Positions 2,868 through 57,514 of a stretch of DNA of 64,000 nucleotides are shown here, one piece after another. Every line of letters begins with the position of its first letter. Positions within the stretch are counted from its first letter, which is position 1. Below the pieces are notes generated by a model that worked only from the letters and a program-made list of their open reading frames with translations, was not told where the DNA came from and ran no database searches. This stretch comes from Terriglobales bacterium (GTDB lineage Bacteria > Acidobacteriota > Terriglobia > Terriglobales > Acidobacteriaceae). The position numbers and the translations under genes were made by a program. The stretch is from assembly GCA_038229415.1 (NCBI GenBank), contig JBBROM010000004.1:210343-274342 (forward strand). The letters run 5' to 3'.

Positions 2868-3126
2868 CCTGACGTGGGGCTGGAAGCCTGACCCGGCGCT
2901 CACGTGCCGGGCTTTCGTCTGACGTCCCGCTTGGCGGGACTGGGGGGTGGTGGGGTTTGCCCGCCTGTGGAGATCAAGAGGTGTGAATGCCTTCTGGTTC
3001 CTTCCTCCCACCCTAACGGCGCGAAAAGCACGCGCCGCGAGGGTGGGGCACCAGCGGGAAAGGTGATTGGGAAAGCTGACGACGACCTGCGGGTCGGCGC
3101 GCACCATCTCTTCTGTCGTCCTTTTC

Positions 3127-8157: not shown

Positions 8158-8359
8158 CAGAAGGGATAAAACCGCGCGGGTGCCTCACTCTTGTCCGCTG
8201 TCCGCGTTCTTTTGCGGATAGGGTGGGGTCTTTGCTTGCTGTAGGCGCAGCCCTCTCGCCAATCCAGGCCTAATCGGACTATCCTGAATGGTTGGCGTAC
8301 GCTGGCTGAAGCCGATGGCCGCTGCATTCTATTTCTGCAATTTCCTGAAGGAGACTTTC

Positions 8360-33039: not shown

Positions 33040-33621
33040 TTACTTCGCGGCGGGCCGCGTGGCAGCCAACTCAAGGGTGATGGCGACTTCATCCGCGACA
33101 ACGGCTCCGCCACCATCCAGTGACTTGCTCCAGCTCACGCCGAAGTCCTGGCGGTTGACTTTGGTCGTCGCCGTCGCACCAATGTTAATGCTGCCCATTG
33201 CCGAAACCTCGGGTGTCGGGCCATCCACATTCAAGACCACTTCCTTCGTCGTCCCGTGCATCGTCAGGTCGCCTTTGACCTTGAGCGCGCCACCATCCAT
33301 GTAAAACTGCTTGCTCTTGAAGGTGATGGTCGGGTACTTGGCGGCATCGAAAAAGTCCGGGCTCTTCAGGTGGCCATCGCGTTGCGGTTGACCGGTGTTC
33401 ACGGTGGAGACGTCCATGGAAGCTTCCACTTTGCTGGCGGCCAGGTTCTTGGGGTCGTAGGTGATAGTGCCGGTTACGTTCCCAAACGTTCCCTTCACGT
33501 TGGACACCATCAAGTGGCGGACGGAAAACTCCGCCGACGAGTGGGCCGTGTCAATCTTGTAGTCAGCCGCCAGCGCCATGCTGGGGATCAGGAACAGCAG
33601 TGCAGCAAGTCTCAAACGCAT
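33040..33621 (-). CDS. YceI-family periplasmic (polyisoprenoid-binding-like) protein
   Basis: A signal peptide is followed by YKIDTAHSSAEFSVRHLMVSNVKGTF and LTMHGTTKEVVL blocks typical of YceI. Confidence 0.85.
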   Translation of the reverse strand: MRLRLAALLFLIPSMALAADYKIDTAHSSAEFSVRHLMVSNVKGTFGNVTGTITYDPKNLAASKVEASMDVSTVNTGQPQRDGHLKSPDFFDAAKYPTITFKSKQFYMDGGALKVKGDLTMHGTTKEVVLNVDGPTPEVSAMGSINIGATATTKVNRQDFGVSWSKSLDGGGAVVADEVAITLELAATRPAAK

Positions 33622-33684: not shown

Positions 33685-34275
33685 TCAGGCTCCAGCCCCG
33701 TCAAGGTCTGCACTGGCTGCCGATTTATCTTCGGCAGGACAAGCATCTCGTGTTTCCCACGCCCCTCGTGCTTTGGTGAGCAAGCCAATGAGCTGCGTCA
33801 CCTCACACTCCGTCAGACGTGCCATTACCGAAACGTCCGCATCATCCATGCGAGAATCCAGTTGGGCCAGGACGCTCGATCCGTGGCAGGTGAGTGAACA
33901 GTTCACCTGCCGCCGATCCAGCGACTCGCGTTCGCGAGAAATCAGGCCCTTGGCGGCCATTTTGTCGAGCAGCCGAGTCATGGCTGGCACTCGCGTCGTC
34001 ATGCGCTCACGAATCTGACAAACCGCAGCCCCGCGGGGCCCTGCTCCTCGCAGAATTCTCAGAATGTTGTATTGCTCGGGAGTCAGGTCAAAGGGAGCTA
34101 AGGTCCGGCTTAGCGCATCCCGCAATTCGGTCGCGCTTCGGAGTACGGTATAGATCGCTTCATGTTGCGGGGAACGGAATCTGGGTCCGTGGCATGGTCC
34201 TGGCGGAGCACCTTCCGGGACAGCCGTGGCAATTGCTGCTGCACTCTGCCCGCTATCTGCCAAATCTGCCTGCAT
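33685..34275 (-). CDS. MarR-family transcriptional regulator
   Basis: Winged-helix blocks LTPEQYNILRILRGAG...ICQIRERMTTRVPAMTRLLDKMAAKGLISRERESLDRRQV. It lies 63 nt upstream of the YceI gene on the same strand. Confidence 0.85.
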   Translation of the reverse strand: MQADLADSGQSAAAIATAVPEGAPPGPCHGPRFRSPQHEAIYTVLRSATELRDALSRTLAPFDLTPEQYNILRILRGAGPRGAAVCQIRERMTTRVPAMTRLLDKMAAKGLISRERESLDRRQVNCSLTCHGSSVLAQLDSRMDDADVSVMARLTECEVTQLIGLLTKARGAWETRDACPAEDKSAASADLDGAGA

Positions 34276-34439
34276 ATCGGAATAGATGACCGGTCATACA
34301 ATTTGATGCAGAAAATTGCACCTCAGGCAAAGAATTTTGTAACTCTTTACCCTTTAAATGGTAATAGACGGCCTAGCAAGGCAGCCGGCTGCTTTTTGGG
34401 GGCCTCTGGGAACGTACGCACATATGACTTCTCCCAACG

Positions 34440-34471
34440 AAAAAGCCCTTGAGGATTGCTCCTCAAGGGCT
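34440..34471 (-). terminator. Rho-independent terminator closing the 42.6-34.5 kb minus-strand gene array
   Basis: Perfect 12-bp stem agcccttgagga / tcctcaagggct with a 4-nt loop. On the minus strand it is followed by TTTTT. It lies 22 nt after the stop codon at 34493. Confidence 0.85.
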
Positions 34472-34492
34472 CCGATTCCAAGTTGGAATGGC

Positions 34493-36220
34493 TTACTGTA
34501 GCGCATCCTGCGTAACCTTGATCGCGCAGTAGTTGTTGGACCCGCACTGGGCAGCGGTGCTGGTGGAACGCGTTCCGAAGTAGACGCCGTTGGTGCCCGG
34601 GGCGCCGCCCTTCAGGTAGTCCAGCACAAAGGCGCTGGTGCCGCCCAGCATTCCGGTTGCGGAAGCCGTCGGAGTTGCGCTGGTCGAGGTGATGGGTGTG
34701 TTGATGGACCACGAGGTCAGCAGGTTGCTGCCCGTGGTGTTGGTGCCTGTGCCCGTACCCACATAGAGACGGTCATTCGTTCCATCGGACAAGGTGACGA
34801 TGGGTGAACAGTGCCCGGCAGGCTGAGCGGAAGTGTTGACGTTCGCGTTGCCCATTAATGTCGCTGTGGTGTTCAACACGCCGCTGCCGTTGAAGTTGCC
34901 CGCGTACAGCGCTGGAACCCCCGATGTGCTGCCCGAAAGACCGCAAGCGTACAAGGAGCCGCCAGCGGGGCCGGTGGACAGGTAGTTGTTATCGAAGTTT
35001 GCGCCGAGAACATAGCCAGCAGCCGGAACGCTGCCGATCGCCAAATCCACGTGCGAGCTAAGATCGAGCGGCATCTGCGAGATGATCGGGTGAGCATTGG
35101 CCACATCCGCTGCGGACGCGATGTAAACCCAACCGTTGAACGGATCCACAGCGACCGAATCCACGATCGAGGGATTGGTGTAGCCCTTGTTTGCACCCAC
35201 CTGGATTGAGGAGGAAAGTGCAAAACCAGTGCTGCTGCTAAACGTATACGAGAAGACCTTGGCCCCATCAGAAATGTAGATTTTGCCGTGTTGGGCGTCA
35301 TATACCGGCGAAGTCAGCTGCGAATTGGTGGTCACAATCGTGCAGAAGTCTACCGTCGGCGTTCCGTTAAAAACGCCGCTGACGTGATACAGGCGACCAT
35401 TGTTGGCACCCATGAATGCTCCATCGCTGGTGTAATCAATGTAAGGGGAAGAACCGAAGTTGTCCGCCTTGAGCAGCCCCGTGCAGCCTGGGACCCTGGC
35501 ATTCGTATAGTCCAGCGAAACCAGTGCGCCCGCCGAAGGGGCAACCGAGCCCGTGGTGGCATTGGTGCCTTGGCCAGTGGTCAAGGTGAGTACCTCGAAG
35601 AGTGCGCGATGGCGGCTCACTGACGACACCACAAACGCCGCCTTCTTTCCATCCAGCGACAATTCCGGAGAAAGGAAGATGCCACCGTCATCCACGGCAT
35701 AGGAGAACGCGAAATTCGGAGCCGTGCCGGTGCAGGAGGAGCCGTTCGCTCCGGCATACAGATTGTTGAGACCAACAAGATTGGCCTGCACGCCAGCTGC
35801 CGGTGAAACCGTCCCCGGAGTAGAGATTGCAAATAAGATAAAGTCACTGGTGCAGGCACCAGGGAAGCTCGGCGTCGTGTTCGCGGTGTACTTGGCCGGG
35901 AACTCGCCTTCGGGCAAACCGCGGCTGGTTGCTTTTGGTCCTAGTGAGATGGACCATTCCACTGGCGTCGCAGGGGCTGGAGCATTGGGGCGGACTGCGC
36001 CTGACTTCAAATCGCGCAACGCCAAGGCTTGCTGCAAGCGCGGGTCCTTATTCGCTGCGACCACTGCGGCATGGCCGGAAATTGCGGGGAGTACACGATT
36101 CGTGCTCCAGCTTTGCACTGAACTGGTGGAGCGGGAGGCGGATTGTGCCGATGCACACACCGCGCTCAACAACAGCCCACAGCCAGCAAAAGCCACTAAA
36201 ACTTTTCGGGGGTTCAGCAT
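34493..36220 (-). CDS. Secreted hypothetical protein (Thr/Ser/Gly-rich, probably beta-rich)
   Basis: Strong RBS ggagga 8 nt upstream and a signal peptide (VLVAFAGCGLLLSAVCASAQ). I recognise no family. Confidence 0.75.
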   Translation of the reverse strand: MLNPRKVLVAFAGCGLLLSAVCASAQSASRSTSSVQSWSTNRVLPAISGHAAVVAANKDPRLQQALALRDLKSGAVRPNAPAPATPVEWSISLGPKATSRGLPEGEFPAKYTANTTPSFPGACTSDFILFAISTPGTVSPAAGVQANLVGLNNLYAGANGSSCTGTAPNFAFSYAVDDGGIFLSPELSLDGKKAAFVVSSVSRHRALFEVLTLTTGQGTNATTGSVAPSAGALVSLDYTNARVPGCTGLLKADNFGSSPYIDYTSDGAFMGANNGRLYHVSGVFNGTPTVDFCTIVTTNSQLTSPVYDAQHGKIYISDGAKVFSYTFSSSTGFALSSSIQVGANKGYTNPSIVDSVAVDPFNGWVYIASAADVANAHPIISQMPLDLSSHVDLAIGSVPAAGYVLGANFDNNYLSTGPAGGSLYACGLSGSTSGVPALYAGNFNGSGVLNTTATLMGNANVNTSAQPAGHCSPIVTLSDGTNDRLYVGTGTGTNTTGSNLLTSWSINTPITSTSATPTASATGMLGGTSAFVLDYLKGGAPGTNGVYFGTRSTSTAAQCGSNNYCAIKVTQDALQ

Positions 36221-36300
36221 ATTATTTTTCCTCCACGGAATTTCTGCATTCGATCAGTAATCTGATTCTCGCGCCGACAGCCAGAACATCTTAAGAACGT

Positions 36301-37437
36301 CTACGCGCTCACGCCGGATTGTGCCGCCGGCATAGATGGGATACGAATTTGCACCAACGGCACGGAAAGGCCTCCGCTGACGCCTAAAGACTGCAAGCGA
36401 AGCATATTGGCCGAAGGAATCGCGGTTCGCTGGTAGGACTTTTCACAGTCTGCCACCGAGGGGCCCCGCATATTGCCTTCCATGTACGCCAAACCTGGGC
36501 ACCGCGTGCAGGTGCCTACATGAGAACAGCCGGAACAAACCGTCAAGTCGCGCGCGCGAATTGAGCGCACTTCGTTCAGTTGGTCCGAGTGCTGCCAGAT
36601 ATCGAGAAAGCGCTGTTGGCGAACGTTGCCACTGGGTAGCGGAAACTGCACACACGGATAAACGTCACCGTACGGCGAAACATAGCAAGCCGAATGTCCG
36701 GCGCTGCACGGGATGCCATCCAAGACGTCATCATCAGGCGCGGGCGGCGGGGCGCAAAACTCCACCGAATTCCCTACTACTTCATCGTCGCGAAAAATCT
36801 TGTGCAGTTGGTCGCCAGACGCGCGCAGCGCCAGCAGGGAGCGGTCCCCATCCATCTTGGGCGTAATCGTTGGGTCGAGCTGATAGCCGACGCCGAGCTC
36901 TTCTGCAAGTTTTTTCGCGCCCAGATAGTCGTCGGCGTTGTGCGTCATCAGCACATTGGCGATGGTGACTTTGAGGCCCTGTTCCTTCAGGAATTTGATC
37001 GCCCGTACGGTGCGTTCCCACGAACCCTTCACCAGGGTGATGGCATCATGTACTTCGGCGCGGTGGGAGTAGACGCTGATGTTGATCTGTTCCACACCCA
37101 GTTCGCGCAACTGCTGCGCCTGTTTTTCCTTGATCAGCACCGCATTCGTCTTGACCTTGACGTTGAACAGCAGCTTGCGGGCATAGGCGACCAGCTCAAG
37201 GAAATCCTTGCGCAGAAAAACTTCGCCGCCGCTAAAGGTGAGGAAGAATGTACCTGCCGCCGCCAGCTCGTCCAGCAAATGCTTGATCTCGTCGGTGGTC
37301 ATCTCGCCGTGGTCATCATGGTCGAGATAGCAGTGGACGCAACGCTCATTGCAGCGGTAGGTCACATCCACATGGACATTGATCGGGACACCGTATCCGA
37401 TGGCCTTCTGCGACATTTCTCCGATCAGTTGACCCAT
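36301..37437 (-). CDS. Radical SAM / SPASM-domain peptide maturase
   Basis: The CxxxCxxC cluster is in VTYRCNERCVHCY. The C-terminal SPASM-type Cys-rich region is CSAGHSACYVSPYGDVYPC...CSGCSHVGTCTRCPG. Confidence 0.9.
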   Translation of the reverse strand: MGQLIGEMSQKAIGYGVPINVHVDVTYRCNERCVHCYLDHDDHGEMTTDEIKHLLDELAAAGTFFLTFSGGEVFLRKDFLELVAYARKLLFNVKVKTNAVLIKEKQAQQLRELGVEQINISVYSHRAEVHDAITLVKGSWERTVRAIKFLKEQGLKVTIANVLMTHNADDYLGAKKLAEELGVGYQLDPTITPKMDGDRSLLALRASGDQLHKIFRDDEVVGNSVEFCAPPPAPDDDVLDGIPCSAGHSACYVSPYGDVYPCVQFPLPSGNVRQQRFLDIWQHSDQLNEVRSIRARDLTVCSGCSHVGTCTRCPGLAYMEGNMRGPSVADCEKSYQRTAIPSANMLRLQSLGVSGGLSVPLVQIRIPSMPAAQSGVSA

Positions 37438-37443
37438 GTTTTT

Positions 37444-37755
37444 CTACTCCACGTAGCCGGCCGCGTTGGTCGCGATCGGCTGGTCCGACACCAGCAAAAT
37501 TCCATGCTCCGAAAGGTCGCTGACAAATGCCTCAGCATCGCGCAACGCCTCTTCCGGCGAAACCTCAAACTCCTGGCAAACCCGGCCCGTCACAATTTCA
37601 TGCAGCGGCGTCTTGCCATCTGCTGCCAGCCAAACCGTGACTGCAACAGGATTCAGCGTGAAAAACTTGGAGTCTACCGCCGACATAATCATCATCTCGT
37701 CGCCCAGTTGACGGGCGGCGATGCGGGCACTGCGCGCGATGTAAGTCTGCGTCAT
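37444..37755 (-). CDS. PqqD-family peptide chaperone (RRE domain)
   Basis: 103 aa. LGDEMMIMSAVDSKFFTLNPVAVTVWLAADGKTPLHEIV...FEVSPEEALRDAEAFVSDLSEHGIL matches the PqqD fold pattern. Its stop codon lies 6 nt before the rSAM start. Confidence 0.85.
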   Translation of the reverse strand: MTQTYIARSARIAARQLGDEMMIMSAVDSKFFTLNPVAVTVWLAADGKTPLHEIVTGRVCQEFEVSPEEALRDAEAFVSDLSEHGILLVSDQPIATNAAGYVE

Positions 37756-37855
37756 CCATTCATCCTAACGACCGTTCCAAACTGGGAACAGCCCACAACC
37801 GGGCTATTCGTATCCCCAACCGAGCCACCATTGCCCACGAAAGTGGGACAAGCGA

Positions 37856-38668
37856 CTAGCCAATCAAATCCCACACCCGTTCGTCGGGATAAAAGTTCAG
37901 CCGACGCACCGGCACCCGCTCTAAAAACGCACACGCCCCGGCGAAGACCCGGTTTACCAGTTCCTCGTCCCGTGCGAAGAACAAAATATTTCTCATCAGC
38001 ATGCGCAGTGCTTCAGCCCGAGGAATCTCCTCAAAGTGGTTCGAGTCACCCTTGCCGAGAAAATACAGCGCCTCGATTGGCCCGGATGTATTCACACCCG
38101 GCGTACCCATCTCTCCGGCGAATGGCGTCCCGTAGGCCACGTATCCGTTTCCGTCGCCCATCCTGCGGATATACGACGCTTCATCCGTAAGCACCGAAGC
38201 GTCGGGAGGGGCTAGCCGCGAAATCGTGGTCTTGCCTGCAGTTGAGACACCCGAAAATAGAAATGCCTTGCCGTTTCGTACCACGCTCGCCGCATGCAGA
38301 AGAAAGCCGCCCTCTTGTGCCAGTGCCAGCGAATGCACGATGCGCAGCACAGAATCAATGGCATAGGGCGTCAGGGTCTGCGTGATGCGGCCTTGGCGAG
38401 TACGCGAGTCCCATTCCGCGCGAAAGTCGCCACGCTCCATGCGCCAGAGGCTTCCCTCCGCAGTTACGCTAACGTCGGCATCCGGATCGGCTAGCGCGGC
38501 GCCGTCAATTACTGTGATCTCAAACTCATAACCGGGCTCCCGGCCACTGCCAGCAAAGGTGCCGAAACGGGACTCCAGCAGTGGAATCAGCCGCGCATCC
38601 TCTGAGCGGAGCAGAACGGCAATGCCCCCGATCTCGACGACGACTTCGGCTGCCATGGTGGAATTCAC
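37856..38668 (-). CDS. HPr-kinase-related (HprK-like) serine kinase
   Basis: LHAASVVRNGKAFLFSGVSTAGKTT is the HprK C-domain P-loop context. The GTG start overlaps the upstream stop codon (GTGA). An alternative ATG lies four codons downstream. Confidence 0.8.
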   Translation of the reverse strand: MNSTMAAEVVVEIGGIAVLLRSEDARLIPLLESRFGTFAGSGREPGYEFEITVIDGAALADPDADVSVTAEGSLWRMERGDFRAEWDSRTRQGRITQTLTPYAIDSVLRIVHSLALAQEGGFLLHAASVVRNGKAFLFSGVSTAGKTTISRLAPPDASVLTDEASYIRRMGDGNGYVAYGTPFAGEMGTPGVNTSGPIEALYFLGKGDSNHFEEIPRAEALRMLMRNILFFARDEELVNRVFAGACAFLERVPVRRLNFYPDERVWDLIG

Positions 38669-39237
38669 GAATTCTCCGTGCGGTGCAAGCCGCTCACAAC
38701 GACGTGCGACGATGCGTTGTGCTTACTGTATGACTGCTTAGCCTGATACCGCTTATCCCAAAAACATTGAAGGCGGAGGGCAATCGTTCTTACCATGAGC
38801 GATCGGCGGAGGCACTCGGCTAGCCAGGAACGTTTGCGGATCGCGTAAGAAAGTGCCTGCACAGCACCGCGCCGCTCCCTGTGTGTCACCAGCCCCAGCA
38901 GACCTTCCGGGGGCAATGCCGGATCATCCCATTCCAGAAAGTCTCCCCGGCAGACCACCGTACGCATTCCGTCTTCGCCCAACCGCACGATTCTGTGGAC
39001 AACCAACCGCCCACGCTGACGGCTTAGCCACACCTGACCCACCAGCGCTTCGCGCGAGGGAATCGCCTTCACGCGCAGCACGTCGCTTGGCCAAATCGCT
39101 GGCAGCATGCTGGTGCCGTGTGCTCGGAAGCGCAACTCACCGAAGCTGCGCAGCGCTTCTTCGGCCAGGGCGCACCCCGCCAAATCGTGCTCTTCCGGGA
39201 AAGCTATGACTACGAATTCTTTCGGTTGAAGTTGCAC
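38665..39237 (-). CDS. S26-family signal-peptidase-like protease, SipW/archaeal (Ser/His) type
   Basis: The nucleophile block is GTSMLPAIWPSDVL. LVVHRIV stands where bacterial P-type enzymes have the catalytic Lys box (His instead of Lys). The GTG start overlaps the last 28 nt of the precursor ORF. Confidence 0.7.
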   Translation of the reverse strand: MQLQPKEFVVIAFPEEHDLAGCALAEEALRSFGELRFRAHGTSMLPAIWPSDVLRVKAIPSREALVGQVWLSRQRGRLVVHRIVRLGEDGMRTVVCRGDFLEWDDPALPPEGLLGLVTHRERRGAVQALSYAIRKRSWLAECLRRSLMVRTIALRLQCFWDKRYQAKQSYSKHNASSHVVVSGLHRTENS

Positions 39238-39380
39238 TGCGAACCGCCAGCTGGCGTCTTACCGCAGGCCAACGCCATGGTTTCAAACACTTCTTCGTAG
39301 CGATATTCAGGCTTGGCGTATTGCTTTTTTTCGGTCGGAACTGCGACCGTCGTTCCTGAGGTGGCGTTGAGCTTTTCCAT
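39210..39380 (-). CDS. Candidate RiPP precursor peptide, 56 aa (not in the supplied ORF track)
   Basis: Hand translation gives MEKLNATSGTTVAVPTEKKQYAKPEYRYEEVFETMALACGKTPAGGSQCNFNRKNS followed by a stop. aaggag lies 11 nt upstream of the ATG and an in-frame TAA lies 6 codons upstream. It sits at the head of the maturase operon. Confidence 0.7.
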   Translation of the reverse strand: MEKLNATSGTTVAVPTEKKQYAKPEYRYEEVFETMALACGKTPAGGSQCNFNRKNS

Positions 39381-39448
39381 GATCCGAGGATCTCCTTAGT
39401 CTTGGGTTTGCCTCATTGCGGGCAGAGACGAGACCCGTTTTGAAACTG

Positions 39449-39481
39449 ATTATATCTATTTCGGGAAAAATTCCTTATCAA
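39449..39481 (-). promoter_or_regulatory. Candidate promoter hexamers in the AT-rich gap upstream of the precursor ORF
   Basis: On the minus strand there is a TTGATA (39481-39476) and a perfect TATAAT (39454-39449), but they are 21 nt apart. A TAGATA lies at the canonical 17-nt spacing. The assignment is tentative. Confidence 0.3.
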
Positions 39482-39584
39482 ATTTTACAATTCCTGTGAA
39501 TCGTATGGACTTTAGGCTCAGAGAGGGTGGAATCAGTAAATACAGGCTAGAAGAAAGGGGCGGGATTCCAGGATAGGGATAACT

Positions 39585-40409
39585 CTAGTAATAAGCCAGC
39601 GATCCCCGGCGTCTAGCGGAACGCAGCGCCAGATCGAAGGCAAACCATCCTAAGGGAAGCAGAAGACAGCCGGAGGCAAGCTGTGCCAATTCAGGAAATA
39701 GCTGACCAGGACTGCTCCCCGAGAGCAGGGCTGCCCTCATACACGTCAGCGCTTGGGTCAACGGAAACGCTCGTGCCCACCACTGCAAGGGGCCGGGCAA
39801 CGCACTCACCGGGAACAGCGTTCCCGTCATCATCCACGTAGCGGTGCCGATGGCCCACAGAATGGCGCTGCCGCGCTGGATTGCCAGCTGCACGGCCGCT
39901 GCGATCAGGCCCAAGCCCACCACGATCACCAGCGAGAGAAGCAATACAATCAACACGCTCCAAGGATTCGCCGCCCCGAGGGACGCTCCGAAGAAGATCG
40001 CTCCGCCAAGCAGATAGAGAAACATCCCAAACGCGCTGCTCAAGAAAGAGGCGAACGCACTTAGCAGCACCAGCACCGTAGGCGAAGTAGAGGTGGTCAT
40101 CAGGACTTCCAGCATTCCCGTAGTTTGGGCTTCTTGAATCAGATTTAGAAACGCGCTGATGCCGTTTAGCAGGAAGCTGTAAAAGCCGGTGCCAACCAGT
40201 AAAAAGAGGAAGTAGTCATGCCCTTCGGGCCGATAACCTGCACCAATCGAACGCGCAAGAAAAAAGAAAACGGCCAGCTCCGCTAGATGCGTGAGCGCCG
40301 AAAGGGCGAATCCAGCGGGATAACGCAGAGCGGTGAGTATGGCTCGGCGTAACACCGCCACCATCTTGTCGGCTAGTAGCGCGACCGAGCGACTCAGGCG
40401 AGGAATCAT
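39585..40409 (-). CDS. ABC-2-type transporter permease
   Basis: 274-aa protein with six hydrophobic segments. Its ATG overlaps the stop codon of the upstream ATPase gene (ATGA). Confidence 0.8.
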   Translation of the reverse strand: MIPRLSRSVALLADKMVAVLRRAILTALRYPAGFALSALTHLAELAVFFFLARSIGAGYRPEGHDYFLFLLVGTGFYSFLLNGISAFLNLIQEAQTTGMLEVLMTTSTSPTVLVLLSAFASFLSSAFGMFLYLLGGAIFFGASLGAANPWSVLIVLLLSLVIVVGLGLIAAAVQLAIQRGSAILWAIGTATWMMTGTLFPVSALPGPLQWWARAFPLTQALTCMRAALLSGSSPGQLFPELAQLASGCLLLPLGWFAFDLALRSARRRGSLAYY

Positions 40410-41293
40410 GCCGGGCCTCCCGTTGGTGCTGAATTAGAGGAAGAGGCAGCAGGCGGCTCAGGCGGCCCGTCCACTCCATCGCCAATTGCTAGATCGAGTT
40501 CATCGAGCAATGGGTTCCCTATCCGGCCACAGGCCCGAAAATAGGTCTCGCGAAGCGAGGACGAGTTGCGGCCCGAGGGACGGTCGTCATGATGAACCAT
40601 GCGGCCTTGTTGCAGGATTGCGACCTCGTCGGCTACCGCGGCAGCTTCTGTAAAGCTGTGGGTCGCCAGCAGGATGGTTGTTCCCTGCTGCGCCAGCGCG
40701 CGCACCAAGTGCCAGAACTGCTCGGCCGAGCCGGGGTCGAGACTGCGTGTAGGTTCATCGAGCAGCAAAATCGGAGGGCGCTTGAGCAAGGCGCGAGCGA
40801 GGCCCAGACGCTGCGTCATGCCGCTGGAAAACTTCATGACCAGCTTGCCGGAAGCATCGTTCAGGCCAGCGAGCGCGAGCGATTCCGCAACGCGGCGCGT
40901 GCGGGTCGCGCGGGGCACTTCTTCCAGCGCGGCGAAGAACTCGAGATTCTCTTCCGCCGTAAGCCGGGGGAAGAACGACCGCTCGTGAACCAGCACGAAA
41001 CCGACCCGTTGGCGCACGGCCTGATCTTCGTGAACCGTGTCATGGCCCTGCACCAGAATGCTACCCTCGTCAGGAAACAGAATGGAGGACACCATTTTCA
41101 GGGTTGTGGTTTTGCCGCTGCCGTTCGGGCCAAGTAGGACGAGGATACGTCCCGGAGCAAGGCGGAAGCTCAGGTCGCGAACTGCCCATTCTGGCTCCGT
41201 GAGAGCTAGCTCACGGTGCGGCCAAGGCAGCCAACTGCCGCCGCGCCGGTAGCGCTTGCTCACCGCGTTCAGGATGATCGCTTCAAATGCCAT
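40406..41293 (-). CDS. ABC transporter ATP-binding protein
   Basis: Walker A GPNGSGKTT, signature FSSGMTQRL and Walker B ILLLDEPT. I prefer the Met at 41293 (MAFEAIILNAV) to the tracked start at 41311. The C-terminal tail is Pro/Ala/Ser-rich. Confidence 0.9.
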   Translation of the reverse strand: MAFEAIILNAVSKRYRRGGSWLPWPHRELALTEPEWAVRDLSFRLAPGRILVLLGPNGSGKTTTLKMVSSILFPDEGSILVQGHDTVHEDQAVRQRVGFVLVHERSFFPRLTAEENLEFFAALEEVPRATRTRRVAESLALAGLNDASGKLVMKFSSGMTQRLGLARALLKRPPILLLDEPTRSLDPGSAEQFWHLVRALAQQGTTILLATHSFTEAAAVADEVAILQQGRMVHHDDRPSGRNSSSLRETYFRACGRIGNPLLDELDLAIGDGVDGPPEPPAASSSNSAPTGGPA

Positions 41294-41404
41294 GGGGAGG
41301 AAAGGCCGCACTGCTTCGCGCCAGCGCGAGCACGTGCGAACGACCTATTATAGGTCTGGCTCGCAGGCGCAGCGGCTAGAAGGGTACGGTTCTAGTAAGG
41401 AAAT

Positions 41405-42583
41405 ATGAAATCTGATTCCAAAACAGAATCGCGGTCCAAGCTAACTCCCGAGTTTGCTTTATTGCTGCGGGCGGTGTCGCTAGACGCGTGTGAGGGCGAA
41501 TCAAAGCTCGCTGCGAACAACGACTGGCCTCGCCTGGCTGATCTGGCCGATGCTCATGGCCTTTCCGTGCGGCTGGGTGGATTGCTGCAACGGTATCAGG
41601 ATCAGGTTCCGGCGGAACTGCTTGAGGCATTGGCCCGCGAAACCGCGGCCAATGCTCGGCGCAATCTCGAATTCACGCAGCGTTTGCTGAGAATTGTGAA
41701 TGCACTGGCGGAAGTGGGCGTCCCTGCGCTGGCCTATAAAGGCCCGGTGCTGGCAGAGATGCTCTATGGCAGTCAACCGCTGCGCGAGTTCCGCGATGTG
41801 GATGTACTCATCCGGCCTGAAGACTGGCCAAGCGCCAAGCAGCGCATGATCGCGCTTGGGCTCACGCCGAACCAGAGCTTTACCGTTGGGCAAGAAGCGG
41901 CTTACGTCCGCTCGAACAACGAGATGGCGTTTGACGGTTGGGGTGCCCGCAACTGGCTGGAGATTGAATGGGCCATTGTGCCGCGCTACTTTAGTGTGGA
42001 GATGCGGGTGGAGGATTTACTGGCGCGATCGGTAGAATTTTCGCTGGCGGGCGCGATGGTGCGAACGCTCTGCGCGGAAGACACGCTGCTGGCGCTGGCG
42101 GTGCATGGCAGCAAGCATGGCTGGTCACGACTGTGCTGGGTGGCCGACATCGCCGACCTGTTGCGAGTTCGCGAGTTGGATTGGGATGTGGTGTTAAGAG
42201 AAGCGGAACGATTAGGAGTGATGCGTATGGTGCGCGTGGCGTTGCGCTTGGCGGCGCAGGTGAATCCGGGCATGCGTGCAGATTTGCCTTTGAACACTAT
42301 TGCGGAACAGCAAGCTGTGGATGGATTGGCGGGGGAATTTTGGCGCGCGTTGCAATATGAGCCGCAGCGCTATACGCAGGAGTCGTGGCGATACTTTCTG
42401 ATGATGCCGCGCTTGCGCGAACGCGGCGGTGATCGTTTGCGATTTGTGTGGCGTCTGCTGGCGACGCCGGAAACTGGGGAGTGGAAGTTGGTGAGTCTGC
42501 CGGATTCGCTTTACGGGCTTTACTATCCGTTGCGGGGATTACGGCTGGCGATGAAGCTGTTGCGGAGGCTGTTGCGGTTCTAG
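41405..42583 (+). CDS. Nucleotidyltransferase-family protein (NTP_transf_5 type)
   Basis: The blocks ALAYKGPVLAEMLYGSQPLREFRDVDVLIRPEDW and LALAVHGSKHGW are characteristic of the uncharacterised nucleotidyltransferases found beside PqqD/HprK-like pairs. It is divergent from the ABC genes. Confidence 0.75.
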   Translation: MKSDSKTESRSKLTPEFALLLRAVSLDACEGESKLAANNDWPRLADLADAHGLSVRLGGLLQRYQDQVPAELLEALARETAANARRNLEFTQRLLRIVNALAEVGVPALAYKGPVLAEMLYGSQPLREFRDVDVLIRPEDWPSAKQRMIALGLTPNQSFTVGQEAAYVRSNNEMAFDGWGARNWLEIEWAIVPRYFSVEMRVEDLLARSVEFSLAGAMVRTLCAEDTLLALAVHGSKHGWSRLCWVADIADLLRVRELDWDVVLREAERLGVMRMVRVALRLAAQVNPGMRADLPLNTIAEQQAVDGLAGEFWRALQYEPQRYTQESWRYFLMMPRLRERGGDRLRFVWRLLATPETGEWKLVSLPDSLYGLYYPLRGLRLAMKLLRRLLRF

Positions 42584-42589
42584 CACTGG

Positions 42590-42935
42590 GCGGTTTGGTT
42601 GGCGCAGATCCCGTGCCGCCCCTACGGGGCTCGACTTTTGCGCCGTGCCTACCCAGGGCTTACGCCCTGGGCTAAATGCAAGTTCGCCCCTGACGGGGCT
42701 GCGGCAGGGGTGGAGCGAACGTCGCAAGCATAGACCAAAGTACGCGGCTAATGAGCTGCGGGTTATTTTCGAGCGGCGGTCGCAGCACTGCCTGGAGGCG
42801 TGGCACGGTAGGGGTCCTTCGACTACGCGGAGAGACTCGCGTTGCGAATCTCTCCGCTCCGCTCAGGATGACAGGGGGGATGAGTCTGAAACTGACCACT
42901 GCCCAGTGATCGCGCTTCTCGCGCCGGGTCTGGGG
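42590..42935. repeat. Cluster of REP-like hairpin elements, including copy B (42807-42879) of the element at 2787-2867
   Basis: Small GC hairpins are present: gcccc-tac-ggggc, cccagggc-ttac-gccctggg and gcccc-tgac-ggggc. Then comes ggtaggggtccttcgactacgcggagagactcgcgttgcgaatctctccgctccgctcaggatgaca plus a G-run. Confidence 0.8.
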
Positions 42936-42975
42936 TTTGCGCTATCCTCAAGAGTTCTCTGGGAGGGCCTTTTTC

Positions 42976-45900
42976 ATGAAGCAATTTCGCGGACTTGTCG
43001 AATCCGTCACTGCGTTTTCTGCCGTTATTCTTGCCACGCTTTCTCTGGTCGCATTCTTCCCTGCAAGCAGTGCGGCGCAGGATGTGACCTCGCTCTACAG
43101 CGACATGCACTGGCGCATGATTGGACCGTTCCGCGCCGGGCGGACGGTTGCGGGTGCGGGCATTCCCACCCAGCCCTGCGTATTTTATGTGGGCCCAAAT
43201 AACGGCGGCGTGTGGAAGACGGACGACTGCGGCAACACTTGGCAGTCGGTGTTTGAGGGCAACACGCAATCGGTGGGGGCGCTGGCGATTGCGCCGTCGA
43301 ATCCTGACATTATCTATGTCGGCAGCGGTGAGGGATTGCGCCGCCCTGATCTTTCCATCGGCGACGGCATGTACAAGACGACCGATGCAGGCAAAACGTG
43401 GACGCATCTCGGCCTGCGCGACGGCCAGCAGATTGGCGCGATCATCGTGGATCCGAAGAATCCTGACCGGCTATTCGTTGCGGTGCTGGGGCATCCTTAT
43501 GGCCCTAATGTGGAGCGTGGAATTTTCCGCTCGCTCGATGGAGGGCAGACGTTCACCAAAGTGCTTTACAAGAACGACATTCTTGGCGGCATTGATCTCG
43601 CCTTCGATCCGCGCGACAGCAGGAAGATTTATGCGTCGCTTTGGGCTTCGATGCGCACGCCGTGGTGGTGGGGAAATAATCTTGAAGGTCCGGGCAGTGC
43701 GCTCTATAAGTCTGACGATGGCGGCGAAACTTGGCGCGAGTTGAACAAGGGCTTTCCGGAAAAGCATAACCGGATCAGTATCACGATTGCGCCGTCGAAC
43801 CCCGACCGCATGTACGCGACTGTGGATGTAAGCGACGCCGGCGGCGTCTATCGCTCGGACGATGCCGGCGAGAGCTGGACGCTGGTTAACTCCGAGGAAC
43901 GCGTGGTTGGGCGCAACTCGGACTTTGCGTGGATTCGCGTTCATCCGAAAGATGCTGACACGATTTACATCAGCAATACTTCGACGTATAAATCCACGGA
44001 CGGTGGCAAGACGGTGACCGCGATCAAGGGTGCTCCGGGCGGCGACGACTATCATGCGACGTGGATCAATCCGCTGAATCCCGACATCATGCTGCTGACG
44101 GTGGATCAGGGCGCAGTCGTTACTGTGAATGGTGGCAAAACGTGGAGCAGTTGGTACAACCAGCCCACGGCGCAGATTTATCATGTGGCGACGGACAATC
44201 AGTTTCCGTATTGGGTCTATGGTTCGCAGCAGGATAGCGGCTCGGTTGGCACGACGAGTCGCAGTGACTACGGGGGCATCACGTTCCGCGACTGGCATCC
44301 CATTGGCATTGAAGAGTACGGCTACGTGGCACCCGATCCGCTGCATCCTGATATTTTGTATGGCGGCAAGTTTACCAAGTTTGATCGCCGCACGGGACAG
44401 GTGCAGGATGTGAGTCCGTGGGTGATTCGTACGGGCAAGTATCGGCTGAATCGTTCGCAACCGGTGATGTTCAATCCGGTGGATCCGCACATTCTCTACT
44501 TCGGTTCGCAGGTGCTGTTTGAAACGCGCGATGGCGGGCACAGTTGGAAAGAAATTTCTCCGGATCTGAGTCGCCCGGAGCCGGTGACGCCCGCGACGGT
44601 CGGCCCTGAGTTTGTAAACAACGATCCGCTCAAAGGCATTCATCATGGAGTGATTTATTCCATCGCACCTTCACCGAAGGATGTGAACCTGATTTGGGCT
44701 GGCACCGATGATGGCCTGGTACACGTGACCCGCGACGGCGGCAAAAAGTGGGAGAACGTTACGCCGCCCGAGATGACGGCGTGGAGCAAAGTGACGCAGA
44801 TGGATGCGGGACATTTCGATGCAAAAACTGCATACATTTCGGTGAGCCGCTTCCGGCTGGATGATCTGCACGCCTATATTTATCGCACGCACGACGGCGG
44901 CAAGACCTGGCAGAAGATCACCAATGGAATTTCGGATGACGCAGCGGTGGATGCGGTGCGCGAAGATCCGGAGAAGCCTGGGCTGTTGTTTGCGGGCACC
45001 GAGCGTGCCATGTGGGCCAGCTTCGACGATGGCGACCATTGGCATTCCCTGCAAATGAACCTGCCGCTCACCGCAATGCGCGATTTCGTGATCCACGGCG
45101 ACGACATTGTGGTGGGCACGCATGGGCGATCCTTCTGGATTCTCGACGACATCACACCACTGCGCCAGATCAAGGAAAGCGACTTCAGCAAGACTCGACT
45201 GTTTGCGCCGCAACTAGCGACGCGGATTCGTCGGAGTACGTATCCTGACACGCCGCTACCACCCGAGACGCCGATGGGGCAGAATCCGCCGGATGGCGCG
45301 GTGATTGACTACTTTCTGAAAGATGGGGCGAAGCAGGTGACGATTCAGATCGTAGATTCGGAAGGCAATGTGGCGAGGACGTATTCCAGCGATGACAAGC
45401 CGGAGCCGGTGAACGAGAAGGAACTCAACGTCCCGCTGTATTGGGTGCGGTACGAGAAGACGCTGCCCAACACGGTTGGCATGCATCGCTGGCATTGGGA
45501 TTTGAGCTATGCGCGTCCGAAGGGGCTGGACACGGAGTATCCCATCAGCGCGATTCCGCACGATACGCCCAACGAACCGCTGGGGCCGAGTGCGCTGCCT
45601 GGTCAATATCTAGTGCGGCTTATTGTAGACCACGCTGTGATGCAACAGCCACTCAAGGTGCGAATGGATCCGCGAGTGCTGGCTACAGCGTCTGATCTGA
45701 AGGCCATGTTTGATGCACAGCAAGAAGCGGCCACGCAGATCGCCAAGAACAACGACACTTTGGCCGAGGTTCGTAATTGGAAGAAGCAACTGCGTGAACT
45801 GGCTGGTGTGCCTGAACCGCTTCGCGACAAGGCACATGACCTTGCCGACAAGCTGGAGAAATTAGAGAAAGGCAACGGAACCCGTGAGCCGGGCATTCTT

Positions 45901-46176
45901 GCTTCGAAGGGCATGGCGACAATGCACGGCTGGCTGAACCAGGTGTATGGCTCGCTGGGCAGCGCTGATACCGCGCCCACTGCGCAAGCGCTGGCAATGC
46001 TGCAGGAGCTGGAGAAAGTTTCTGCCGAGCAGATCGCGCAACTTGATCCACTACGCGGCACACTTAAGGAAGTGAACGAACAGTTGCGTAGTGCGGGAAA
46101 GCCAGAGATTGCGCTGATGCGCGGCGGCGAATCGGGTGCAACACAAATTCACGGAGCGGAAAAGGCAGAGGAGTAG
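42976..46176 (+). CDS. Secreted BNR/Asp-box repeat protein (sortilin/VPS10- or GH74-like double beta-propeller)
   Basis: RBS gggaggg 8 nt upstream and a signal peptide. Asp-boxes recur: TTDAGKTW, SLDGGQTF, SDDGGETW, SDDAGESW, STDGGKTV, VNGGKTW, TRDGGHSW, TRDGGKKW, THDGGKTW. Confidence 0.85.
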   Translation: MKQFRGLVESVTAFSAVILATLSLVAFFPASSAAQDVTSLYSDMHWRMIGPFRAGRTVAGAGIPTQPCVFYVGPNNGGVWKTDDCGNTWQSVFEGNTQSVGALAIAPSNPDIIYVGSGEGLRRPDLSIGDGMYKTTDAGKTWTHLGLRDGQQIGAIIVDPKNPDRLFVAVLGHPYGPNVERGIFRSLDGGQTFTKVLYKNDILGGIDLAFDPRDSRKIYASLWASMRTPWWWGNNLEGPGSALYKSDDGGETWRELNKGFPEKHNRISITIAPSNPDRMYATVDVSDAGGVYRSDDAGESWTLVNSEERVVGRNSDFAWIRVHPKDADTIYISNTSTYKSTDGGKTVTAIKGAPGGDDYHATWINPLNPDIMLLTVDQGAVVTVNGGKTWSSWYNQPTAQIYHVATDNQFPYWVYGSQQDSGSVGTTSRSDYGGITFRDWHPIGIEEYGYVAPDPLHPDILYGGKFTKFDRRTGQVQDVSPWVIRTGKYRLNRSQPVMFNPVDPHILYFGSQVLFETRDGGHSWKEISPDLSRPEPVTPATVGPEFVNNDPLKGIHHGVIYSIAPSPKDVNLIWAGTDDGLVHVTRDGGKKWENVTPPEMTAWSKVTQMDAGHFDAKTAYISVSRFRLDDLHAYIYRTHDGGKTWQKITNGISDDAAVDAVREDPEKPGLLFAGTERAMWASFDDGDHWHSLQMNLPLTAMRDFVIHGDDIVVGTHGRSFWILDDITPLRQIKESDFSKTRLFAPQLATRIRRSTYPDTPLPPETPMGQNPPDGAVIDYFLKDGAKQVTIQIVDSEGNVARTYSSDDKPEPVNEKELNVPLYWVRYEKTLPNTVGMHRWHWDLSYARPKGLDTEYPISAIPHDTPNEPLGPSALPGQYLVRLIVDHAVMQQPLKVRMDPRVLATASDLKAMFDAQQEAATQIAKNNDTLAEVRNWKKQLRELAGVPEPLRDKAHDLADKLEKLEKGNGTREPGILASKGMATMHGWLNQVYGSLGSADTAPTAQALAMLQELEKVSAEQIAQLDPLRGTLKEVNEQLRSAGKPEIALMRGGESGATQIHGAEKAEE

Positions 46177-57289: not shown

Positions 57290-57514
57290 AGGCTCGTTTT
57301 CCTTGAGTAGGGTCTTGGAGTCAGAAGAGCGCACTGCTCCGCAGTGGGCGCGAGACTTCACCCCTCCGGTTCGGTGCTGCTCTCTGTACTTGAGCTACGC
57401 GACCAGGGACTCAATCGGATTGGCCGGATGAGGCCGAAATGCCATTTTCTTTAAAAAGATGCGGGCGATCAATCATTGCGTCCGCCAAGATGAGAGATGC
57501 AGGCAAAACAATGA

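Follow-up and report, generated by a model that had tools for sequence, protein, structure and literature searches.

The linear polyphosphorylated peptide (LPP) family of Bacillota was described by Popov et al. (Nat Commun 2026, PMC13381572). Its clusters combine a lasso-type tailoring set with an archaeal-type signal-peptidase-like leader peptidase and contain no lasso enzymes, and the leader reads YxxPxVLxHQxIxFETxxS; experiments showed that cleavage falls after T(-1) and depends on the RRE as well as on F(-3), E(-2) and T(-1) (PMC13381572). TIGR04249 (ScmC) was the best model for 67 of the 152 'HprK kinases' in that study, the text of which nowhere mentions radical SAM (rSAM) or SPASM (PMC13381572). 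In the lasso peptides paeninodin and pseudomycoidin, PadeK/PsmK phosphorylate the C-terminal Ser, and pseudomycoidin requires PsmN for the hexose on that phosphate. The SynChlorMet (SCM) cassette, represented by models TIGR04248–TIGR04251 with its kinase family as Pfam PF27840 (ScmC), is not known to have been characterised, and no precursor is known for it. Here we describe a locus, known from its genes, that is likely to be an operon for RiPP biosynthesis, belonging in kind with LPP and SynChlorMet, with an rSAM/SPASM maturase as an extra, class-defining enzyme. The operon is conserved widely in soil Acidobacteria and would yield a small modified peptide.

The window analysed is a 64,000-nt stretch of a Terriglobales bacterium (GCA_038229415.1, JBBROM010000004.1, positions 210,343–274,342, forward strand). 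All nine ORFs of the locus were confirmed at the coordinates and on the strands given by a first-pass annotation (Table 1), and the junctions it had described, including an AT-rich gap upstream of the precursor gene, were borne out: the ABC ATPase and permease genes overlap by ATGA at 40406–40409, the peptidase and kinase genes overlap by GTGA at 38665–38668, PqqD and rSAM are separated by 6 nt, and the precursor and peptidase genes overlap by 28 nt, provided that the GTG at 39237 is the peptidase start. All six proteins that were looked up, among them the precursor (56 aa) and the peptidase (190 aa, GTG start), matched exactly in a public collection. Pfam models for Radical_SAM, SPASM, PqqD, ABC2_membrane, ABC_tran and NTP_transf_5 all matched. 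The labels 'HprK-like' and 'S26-type' hold at the family or superfamily level, but the Pfam search returned nothing significant for either the kinase or the peptidase.

Table 1. Features of the locus, in window coordinates.
Feature	Position	Strand	Evidence
Intrinsic terminator	34435..34471	-	12-bp perfect stem, 4-nt loop, T-run
Secreted 575-aa beta-propeller protein	34493..36220	-	signal-peptide-like N-terminus, AF2
Radical SAM/SPASM peptide maturase	36301..37437	-	Radical_SAM 1.5e-27, SPASM 1.3e-11
PqqD-type RRE, discrete	37444..37755	-	PqqD Pfam 5e-14
ScmC-family P-loop kinase, PEPCK/HprK superfamily	37856..38668	-	PF27840 precomputed, AF2/Foldseek
Soluble S26B (archaeal/ER-type, Ser-His-Asp) signal-peptidase-like leader peptidase	38665..39237	-	profile, hhalign
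Precursor peptide, 56 aa	39210..39380	-	tblastn, alignment
Low-GC gap, 204 bp	39381..39584	-	43.6% GC versus 58% for the window
ABC-2 type permease	39585..40409	-	ABC2_membrane 3.8e-11
ABC transporter ATPase (DrrA-like)	40406..41293 (ORF to 41311)	-	ABC_tran 8e-33
NTP_transf_5 nucleotidyltransferase-like (LppN/PsmN type)	41405..42583	+	PF14907, 2e-56
Acido-Lenti-1-like hairpin	42652..42700	+	Rfam RF01687, 35.3 bits (gathering 37)

Conservation was surveyed in the best 80 of at least 570 rSAM relatives in GTDB species genomes (66–72% identity). In these related loci, all from Acidobacteriota, the rSAM gene was present in 80, PqqD in 77, the kinase in 76, the peptidase in 75 and the precursor in 61. 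The precursor, S26-like peptidase, ScmC-type kinase, PqqD and rSAM/SPASM enzyme form a five-gene core, a unit far from chance. The same four enzymes are encoded in a different order on a Ca. Schekmanbacteria contig, a rearrangement that favours a functional link over gene order that was simply inherited. The neighbourhood is kept across related loci, no lasso cyclase adjoins it, and the small ORF that had been proposed as the precursor is real and co-conserved with the enzymes in the tblastn survey and alignment.

The precursor, encoded once per locus, was matched by tblastn at 45–72% identity; a sub-lineage of 14 loci contains the enzymes and no recognisable linked precursor. Its variable N-terminus is followed by the leader motif Y(-14)xxP(-11)...F(-3)E(-2)T(-1) and a predicted 22-aa core, MALACGKTPAGGSQCNFNRKNS, with Cys5, Cys15 and a C-terminal Ser. 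Across 40 aligned precursors (one a residue shorter), the Y, P, E, VFET, AL, CGK, second Cys and terminal Ser are invariant or nearly so; the C-x9-C spacing occurs in 37, a tail of seven residues in 38, and Ser is the last residue in all 40. Secreted antimicrobial RiPPs usually show much weaker conservation than this core. Because the YxxP...FET leader is common with LPP, cleavage to the 22-residue core is predicted; by analogy with LppA, it would occur after FET. An AAGGAG ribosome-binding site precedes the gene inside the low-GC gap, which probably holds an internal promoter or regulatory region; a sigma-70 consensus scan of these 204 bp gave no match.

The motifs GxSMLP, HR and RGD are invariant among orthologues of the peptidase, and Ser43, His81 and Asp99/Asp105 are the predicted catalytic candidates. 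A profile of 39 orthologues matched human SEC11C/A (E 2e-7) with the Ser, His and Asp aligned, and hhalign matched the peptidase to LppS (probability 98.2%, E 3e-14). Judged by these alignments, it is a homologue of the experimentally characterised LppS; a transmembrane segment was sought in it and none was found, and LppS likewise has none. The peptidase, by profile scores, and the RRE are both nearer to SSN cluster 3 of Popov et al., which was unstudied there, than to LPP cluster 1, and the RRE is closest to the RREs accompanying the cluster 3 peptidases. Among PDB structures it is most closely related to the lasso RREs TbiB1, TfuB1 and PbaB1.

The kinase motifs GVSxAGKTT (P-loop), LHAAS and TDExSY are conserved, leaving the P-loop and metal-site motifs intact. 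TIGR04249 is its best NCBIfam model (6e-10), alongside HprK_rel_B (9e-5); both matches are below cutoff, and no NCBIfam model comes near its curated cutoff with this protein (ScmC gives 38.9 where 125 is required). Foldseek matched its AF2 model (pLDDT 89) to ATP-PEPCK (E 1e-8) and to the HprK/P catalytic domain (E 1e-4), and with a fold nearer to PEPCK than to HprK, another phosphotransfer chemistry is possible. The C-terminus of LppK (...FWELIS, deduced from published primers) resembles that of the window kinase (...VWDLIG). Leu occupies the position of core Ser3, the residue phosphorylated in LPP (FETxxS), which makes the kinase target a guess. The NTP_transf_5 gene diverges from the operon (the gene caller favours a 373-aa start) and adjoins the cassette in 25 of the best 80 loci, as an accessory part. 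The ABC ATPase, called as 295 aa from an ATG at 41293, matches the drrA subfamily at 3e-60, below its cutoff; adjacent in about 9 of the best 80 loci, it is an accessory export or immunity component. Both exporter and nucleotidyltransferase are absent from most of these loci.

At the other end of the unit, the 575-aa protein matched no family in the Pfam search, and its AF2 model (pLDDT 89) is a beta-propeller. In 48 of the best 80 loci a homologue is encoded no more than 10 kb away, in 24 directly downstream of the rSAM gene, and in the window the gene is probably co-transcribed with the cassette; we regard the secreted protein as the cassette's linked partner. The strong terminator claimed beyond it is real, a perfect 12-nt inverted repeat (34444–34455/34460–34471) followed by a T-run, although a terminator consensus scan did not pick it up. 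The 'REP clusters' said to bracket the unit are confirmed only in part: past the nucleotidyltransferase gene there is one Acido-Lenti-1-like hairpin (E 4e-5 in a sub-region search), which borders the unit and is not part of the system, and another inverted repeat at 42827–42857.

The propeller bears on an alternative that we consider unlikely, in which the peptide is a matured cofactor, ligand or small subunit working with this co-encoded protein instead of a natural product released on its own. Precedents may be seen in quinohemoprotein amine dehydrogenase, with its rSAM-crosslinked gamma subunit, in the methylamine dehydrogenase light chain, and in PQQ and mycofactocin. The core is almost invariant over 40 species in which the enzymes are only 50–70% identical, each locus has just one precursor copy, the propeller linkage survives rearrangements, and the window propeller probably shares the transcription unit, before the only strong terminator. 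In addition, the heavy chain of methylamine dehydrogenase ranks with the propeller's top Foldseek matches (E 5e-8), and the best models for the rSAM enzyme include mycofactocin MftC and PqqE. However, the Foldseek TM-scores are only 0.3–0.4, and any propeller matches. The propeller is missing from ABC/NTase-type and precursor-less loci, most propeller-bearing loci have no linked exporter to deliver the peptide, and all the loci belong to one class, so the linkage may be partly inherited.

The rSAM enzyme contains CX3CX2C and eight further invariant Cys, enough, by their number, for two putative auxiliary Fe-S clusters. Its NCBIfam matches are all far below cutoff, the best being heme and mycofactocin enzymes. 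That AhbD (154 bits) and NirJ2 (150 bits) lead the list would fit an enzyme with a non-peptide role, either of the AhbD/NirJ heme type or a sulfatase maturase, among unrelated neighbours. This is very improbable: neither score reaches a third of its 500-bit cutoff, the gene lies next to the PqqD RRE in 77 of the best 80 loci and in another phylum, and a conserved Cys-containing precursor is co-encoded. Even less credible is an ordinary phosphorylated lasso-peptide locus with its cyclase and B2 protease elsewhere, for although the RRE resembles lasso B1 proteins, the leader has YxxP, and the kinase and NTP_transf_5 form the paeninodin/pseudomycoidin tailoring set, no Asn_synthase or Transglut_core3 protein is encoded by the ten large ORFs of the window (483–830 aa), as the first-pass annotation had stated of Asn-synthetase-like cyclases and transglutaminase-like proteases, or listed in five neighbourhood gene tables from this contig and related ones, the dedicated leader peptidase is a non-lasso one homologous to LppS, and the predicted core, which begins with Met, lacks an Asp/Glu at positions 7–9 that could close a lasso ring.

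We return to the probable RiPP operon. The analysis shows which genes and gene families are present, that the peptidase and LppS are homologous, what fold the kinase has, that the precursor bears the leader motif and that the cassette is conserved; we infer every chemical step, including crosslink and phosphorylation site. By homology, the discrete RRE would bind the precursor through the YxxP motif and hand it to the rSAM/SPASM enzyme, which would modify the core, most probably by a Cys-dependent crosslink at Cys5 and/or Cys15. The kinase would phosphorylate a Ser, the invariant C-terminal Ser being the likeliest site by analogy with PadeK/PsmK and LppK, and NTP_transf_5, where present, may extend the phosphate with another group, as happens in pseudomycoidin. 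The SpI-like peptidase, soluble and of the Ser-His-Asp type, is predicted to cut off the leader after F-E-T, as LppS does with LppA, and the ABC-2 pump would export the product.

The first-pass annotation was right to see a RiPP-type operon in which a lasso-like accessory set is joined by an rSAM/SPASM enzyme and an S26-type peptidase. Its view that the combination is undescribed holds only in part, as the LPP family was published in 2026 (PMC13381572) and ScmC, PqqD and rSAM/SPASM are catalogued together as SynChlorMet; the tailoring set and peptidase without lasso enzymes are known, and what stands as unreported in the literature searched is rSAM/SPASM in an LPP-type cluster. Both LPP clusters and the window cluster encode a soluble archaeal-type SpI-like Ser-His-Asp peptidase, a discrete PqqD RRE, an HprK-superfamily kinase with TIGR04249 as best model, NTP_transf_5, an ABC exporter and a YxxP...FET leader, and neither has a lasso cyclase or B2 protease. 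By contrast, the window cluster has an rSAM/SPASM enzyme, of which Popov et al. make no mention for LPP; its two-Cys core is short and nearly invariant, unlike the long, variable cores of LPP, which have Ser3 in place of Leu; its Y-to-FET spacing is two residues shorter; its exporter is a two-gene ABC-2 type, not MsbA-like; and its host belongs to Acidobacteriota, not Bacillota.

An ScmC-family protein, a PqqD homologue and rSAM/SPASM are likewise encoded together in SCM cassettes, but the window proteins score far below the equivalog cutoffs (ScmD 34.3/100 and ScmE 91.9/400, besides ScmC), there is one rSAM where NCBIfam models two (ScmE and ScmF), and the window cluster further encodes an evident precursor and an SpI-like peptidase. 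With paeninodin and pseudomycoidin it has in common a B1-like RRE, a YxxP leader, an HprK-superfamily kinase, a Ser-ending precursor and NTP_transf_5; it differs in having no macrolactam cyclase or B2 protease, another leader peptidase, an rSAM enzyme and a core unable to form a lasso ring. Sactipeptides and ranthipeptides resemble it in that the rSAM/SPASM enzyme carries two sets of auxiliary-cluster Cys, recognition depends on an RRE and the core has invariant Cys, but their maturase models are not reached (AlbA 86/850, StsB 112/625, SkfB 68/300), and neither phosphorylation nor an SpI-type leader peptidase is known from these classes. Against this background, and in the literature searched, three aspects appear to be new: an LPP-type cluster with a defined precursor includes an rSAM/SPASM enzyme, its two-Cys core is almost invariant and ends in Ser, and it is frequently linked to a secreted beta-propeller protein.

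The locus is organized as a RiPP operon without lasso machinery, as the first-pass annotation had proposed; its further claim, that the combination of enzymes is undescribed, does not hold in that form. All nine annotated ORFs lie at their proposed coordinates, and an exact-sequence look-up found six ORFs, including the 56-aa ORF, in a public collection. The junctions (an ATGA overlap, a GTGA overlap and a 6-nt gap) and the terminator that ends the unit were also as described, and the AT-rich gap measures 204 bp, with 43.6% GC against 58% for the window. A ribosome-binding site, AAGGAG, precedes the precursor. A promoter scan returned no sigma-70-like site; the same scan also missed the terminator. 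Because the MarR- and YceI-family genes beyond the terminator have no homologue in any of 80 related loci (the best relatives retrieved with the window rSAM), we place them outside the unit.

The 'REP clusters' of the annotation reduce to two elements, one Acido-Lenti-1-like hairpin and one inverted repeat. The three Acido-Lenti-1 copies in the window behave like dispersed hairpin repeats, which is what had been called REP, and they are consistent with an acidobacterial origin of the window. The inverted repeat lies inside a stretch that resembles another dispersed repeat (…CTTCGACTACGCGGAGAGACTCGC…GCTCAGGATGAC…). For the large protein adjoining the cluster, the homologue on the related contig L085 gives Pfam matches to Sortilin-Vps10/BNR.

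Features of the locus and of its relatives. Coordinates refer to the window unless an L-number (related locus or contig) is given; the last column gives presence among the 80 loci retrieved with the rSAM as query, scored by tblastn.
Feature	Position	Strand	Detail	Loci
Acido-Lenti-1 (Rfam RF01687)	1057-1105, 2892-2941	+	40.5 and 38.6 bits, above gathering threshold	
Two large FG-GAP repeat proteins, peptidase S46, DUF4331 protein	5665-8157, 30486-32831, 8288-10450, 55769-57361		unrelated to cluster	
YceI-family protein	33040-33621	-	beyond terminator	
MarR-family protein	33685-34275	-	beyond terminator	
Terminator	34435-34471		perfect 12-bp hairpin and T-run	
575-aa protein	34493-36220	-		48/80
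rSAM/SPASM	36301-37437	-	Radical_SAM + SPASM (Pfam)	80/80
RRE	37444-37755	-	PqqD (Pfam, 5e-14)	77/80, beside rSAM
Kinase		-		76/80
Peptidase		-		75/80
Precursor/peptidase overlap	39210-39237	-	28 nt	
Precursor		-		61/80
ABC permease	39585-40409		ABC2_membrane (Pfam)	9/80
ABC ATPase	40406-41293		ABC_tran (Pfam)	15/80
NTase	41405-42583	+	NTP_transf_5 (Pfam)	25/80
Acido-Lenti-1-like hairpin (Rfam RF01687)	42652-42700	+	35.3 bits, just under gathering threshold	
Inverted repeat	42827-42857	+	14 nt, 93% complementary, 3-nt loop; between NTase and next gene	
~1050-1080-aa protein	42937-46176	+	adjoins cluster	
Homologues of the 42937-46176 protein	L001 13105-16269, L063 13351-16398, L085 13157-16324		directly after 575-aa gene	
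Precursor-less loci	L010, L030, L031, L034, L039, L040, L049, L050, L052, L054, L065, L067, L073, L080, region about 7900-8330; also L086 8021-8319		NTP_transf_5 divergent from peptidase-kinase-PqqD-rSAM	
Ca. Schekmanbacteria contig (JGI Ga0156233_133)	L087 5574-8486		four enzymes in a row	

The S26-type protein had no match in the local Pfam copy and a sub-threshold NCBIfam match (sigpep_I_arch, 2e-3), and single-sequence searches of the PDB with it and with the kinase returned noise only. Across 39 aligned orthologues, however, the GxSMLP, HR and RGD...D boxes are invariant (S43, H81, D99 and D105), and a profile of these sequences matches human SEC11C/A (E 2e-7) with Ser/His/Asp aligned; LexA and UmuD reach only E about 0.05-0.2. 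We detected no hydrophobic segment or membrane anchor in the protein, its top 19-residue Kyte-Doolittle mean being 0.87, compared with 2.66 for a SipW-type enzyme. The invariant boxes, the SEC11 match and the lack of a hydrophobic segment therefore identify a soluble ER/archaeal-type (S26B) peptidase, which bears out the original label. It shares the GxSMxP/HR/GD catalytic boxes of S26B signal peptidases but lacks their membrane anchor for secretory signal peptides.

A comparable gene set has been described for the linear polyphosphorylated peptides (LPPs) of Bacillota, the clusters of which encode an archaeal-type SpI-like peptidase (LppS), a discrete RRE (LppB), an HprK-like kinase (LppK), an NTP_transf_5 protein (LppN) and an MsbA-like exporter, without lasso enzymes (Popov et al., Nat Commun 2026;17:6633, PMC13381572). 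LPP precursors carry the leader motif YxxPxVLxHQxIxFETxxS; to cut after T(-1), LppS (S29/H68/D93) relies on the RRE as well as on F(-3), E(-2) and T(-1), and core Ser3 takes several phosphates from LppK (PMC13381572). In hhalign, the 39 orthologues matched LppS with a probability of 98.2% (E 3e-14), and the catalytic Ser, His and Asp were aligned.

Forty aligned precursors consist of ~20 variable N-terminal residues followed by KKxYxxPxFRxExVFETMALxCGK, about seven variable residues, a Cys, six residues and a terminal Ser; no signal peptide was found. The Y(-14), P(-11) and F(-3)E(-2)T(-1) residues are invariant. Given the homology of the peptidase to LppS and the Y/P/FET residues of the precursor, cleavage is predicted, by homology, between VFET and the core MALACGKTPAGGSQCNFNRKNS. 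Calculated monoisotopic masses are 2254.0405 Da for the core alone and 6172.9755 Da for the entire precursor. This core holds two invariant Cys, with a C-x9-C spacing in 37/40 precursors and a 7-residue tail in 38/40. The last residue is Ser in 40/40 and is the only conserved Ser of the core; Leu occupies position 3 throughout, and position 4, which is Ala in the window, is Ser in some family members only. The unusual conservation of the core gives a hint that the peptide has a physiological role and is not a variable weapon. Towards its 3′ end, the precursor gene overlaps the peptidase gene only if the latter starts at the GTG at 39237. The 'MPLQxxEF' N-terminal extension of several peptidase orthologues simply arises when the conserved tail of the precursor is read in another frame, and the true peptidase start may therefore lie downstream, possibly at the TTG at Leu of ...HDLAG.

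The closest solved relatives of the RRE are lasso B1 proteins. In agreement with the annotation, neither the ten large window ORFs, to which the Transglut_core3 check of the window extended, nor the source contig's gene table contained an Asn-synthase- or transglutaminase-type protein, and gene tables reaching up to +/-10 kb on five contigs list no lasso cyclase or B2 protease. The predicted core has neither a small N-terminal residue nor Asp/Glu at positions 7-9. We reject a lasso reading, as the cyclase and B2 protease were not found in the ORFs and gene tables covered and the core lacks ring residues.

The HprK-like protein, which had no match in the local Pfam copy, gave sub-threshold NCBIfam matches (ScmC 6e-10, HprK_rel_B 9e-5); its best NCBIfam model is TIGR04249 (ScmC) and its precomputed Pfam family is PF27840 'ScmC'. 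A profile search of the PDB found PEPCK only, at E 0.07. Fold searches with the AlphaFold model (pLDDT 89) matched ATP-dependent PEPCK (E 1e-8, across both domains) and, along 100-170 residues, the HprK/P catalytic domain (E 1e-4). Invariant motifs comprise a P-loop, GVSxAGKTT, together with LHAAS and TDExSY. The Pfam ScmC assignment and the modelled PEPCK/HprK fold show that the label 'HprK-like' is right at the superfamily level. TIGR04249 is also the best model for 67/152 'HprK kinases' in the LPP supplement (PMC13381572), and the C terminus of LppK (...FWELIS), compared through the termini that can be derived from cloning primers, resembles the ...VWDLIG of the window kinase.

The window has a single rSAM gene, and so do the related loci for which gene tables were read. 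Its product carries CX3CX2C and eight further invariant Cys (eleven in total). The best curated models (AhbD, NirJ2, MftC and WgkB) each scored below about half their cutoffs, and none of the curated NCBIfam models for sacti-/ranthipeptide maturases was reached. The rival reading of the rSAM as a non-peptide enzyme was rejected, given these low scores, the PqqD gene that stays beside it and the conserved Cys-containing precursor encoded with it.

With each GTDB species represented by one genome, a scan yielded at least 570 rSAM relatives, of which the best 80 share 66-72% identity and come almost entirely from Acidobacteriota/Terriglobia MAGs. Three architectures recur among their loci. In the first, the cassette is accompanied by the gene for the 575-aa protein (adjacent in 24 loci and within 10 kb in 20 more); the second is NTase-ABC-ABC-cassette (8 loci and 1 truncated locus); and the third, confined to a closely related sub-lineage, combines NTase and enzymes with no recognisable linked precursor (14 loci). 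In the window, the second of these arrangements is joined by the gene for the 575-aa protein. Neither a listing of small ORFs nor two motif regexes nor a six-frame precursor HMM (positive controls, 1e-23 to 1e-31) revealed a precursor within +/-10 kb in the precursor-less loci. When 12 of these loci were aligned, an intergenic stretch of ~300 nt showed invariant blocks (…CGGTCAC…GGGTAYCCAGCCACGCAATAG…GTGCGGTGGGTTATCGT…) and had no Rfam match; its RNAalifold support is weak (-8.5 kcal/mol, covariation -0.49), and we do not call it an RNA.

The LPP supplement includes an 'SSN cluster 3' of unstudied SpI-like peptidases from Acidobacteriota, Deltaproteobacteria, Chloroflexi and candidate phyla, with non-LPP RREs (PMC13381572). 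A peptidase profile built from Acidobacteriota orthologues of the window protein scored 72-100 bits on this cluster, 52-72 on LPP cluster 1 and 22-29 on SipW housekeeping enzymes, and an RRE profile built likewise scored 34-53 bits on cluster-3 RREs against 9-28 on LPP and lasso RREs. This cluster, left unstudied in the LPP work, probably consists of the SpI-like peptidases that are linked to an rSAM gene. In a metagenome scan with a single SSN-cluster-3 peptidase sequence as the query, a Ca. Schekmanbacteria contig was seen to encode PqqD, rSAM/SPASM, HprK-related kinase and SpI-like peptidase in a row. Its peptidase, a member of SSN cluster 3, matches sigpep_I_arch above cutoff, and no YxxP...FET ORF was found near the enzymes. 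As the gene order differs from that of the window, the four-enzyme core is not an accident of acidobacterial synteny.

While the families, folds, leader motif and conservation are established here, the pathway is inferred. In it, the RRE would bind the YxxP leader and the rSAM/SPASM enzyme would modify the core, most simply by a crosslink in which one of the invariant Cys, or both, take part. A Ser would be phosphorylated by the kinase. We propose the C-terminal one, LPP position 3 being Leu here, by analogy with PadeK and PsmK, which phosphorylate the C-terminal Ser of paeninodin and pseudomycoidin; in pseudomycoidin, addition of a hexose to the phosphate requires the NTP_transf_5 protein PsmN. 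The SpI-like peptidase would then remove the leader after FET, and the ABC-2 pump may export the product.

The 575-aa protein begins with a signal-peptide-like N terminus and belongs to no Pfam family; just 83 homologues could be detected. Its model (pLDDT 89) is a beta-propeller, for which Foldseek returned generic propellers, including the methylamine dehydrogenase heavy chain (TM 0.3-0.4), and the linkage of its gene to the cassette survives rearrangements. It is conceivable, although we consider it unlikely, that the product is a conserved, rSAM-crosslinked and phosphorylated 22-residue peptide and not an antibiotic but a physiological Terriglobia factor, serving as a cofactor, ligand or small subunit of the secreted propeller. 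We keep this reading in view because of the propeller linkage, the near-invariant core and the absence of the exporter from most loci. If this is correct, a soil phylum that ranks among the most abundant would have a peptide-derived cofactor or partner system that is new, and the ScmC/SynChlorMet type of cassette would gain its first function.

Among known systems, the likeness to sacti-/ranthipeptides consists of the rSAM/SPASM maturase and a Cys-containing core. The SynChlorMet models of NCBIfam (TIGR04248-04251) cover ScmC, the PqqD-like ScmD and the rSAM/SPASM proteins ScmE and ScmF, so the trio of kinase, PqqD and rSAM, presented in the annotation as part of a new combination, was already catalogued as an orphan cassette. 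By sequence, the window proteins are relatives, not members, of these families: they score 38.9/125 bits for ScmC, 34.3/100 for ScmD, and 91.9/400 and 73.9/400 for ScmE and ScmF, missing the equivalog cutoffs and matching only the broader Pfam ScmC. The SynChlorMet cassette carries both rSAM/SPASM paralogues, whereas the window cassette has one. To our knowledge, SynChlorMet lacks a clearly defined precursor; the present cluster supplies one with a predictable leader/core boundary. The literature searched yielded nothing relevant on SynChlorMet or on a FETMAL peptide motif, and only antiSMASH-level surveys on Acidobacteria, rSAM and RiPPs.

With LPP clusters, the window family shares an LppS-homologous SpI-like peptidase, a discrete PqqD-type RRE, an HprK-like kinase and a leader that carries [Y/W]xxP and ends in FET, although the spacing from Y to FET is two residues shorter. 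The accessory set with an S26-type peptidase is that of LPPs, now a described family; the interpretation given in the annotation is supported in part. LPPs are linear, with no other core-modifying enzyme and with phosphorylation at Ser3 (FETxxS), whereas the window family adds an rSAM/SPASM enzyme and replaces this Ser with an invariant Leu. Radical SAM, SPASM and Acidobacteria are absent from the text of the LPP paper, and we found no radical-SAM/SPASM domain names in its supplementary tables (PMC13381572). A 22-residue substrate now makes both the reaction of the rSAM and the site of the kinase accessible to experiment. The cluster is a hybrid of the LPP family, published in 2026, and the orphan SynChlorMet cassette, and an rSAM/SPASM enzyme within an LPP-type cluster, with a two-Cys core ending in Ser and a wide distribution in Terriglobia, appears to be unreported.
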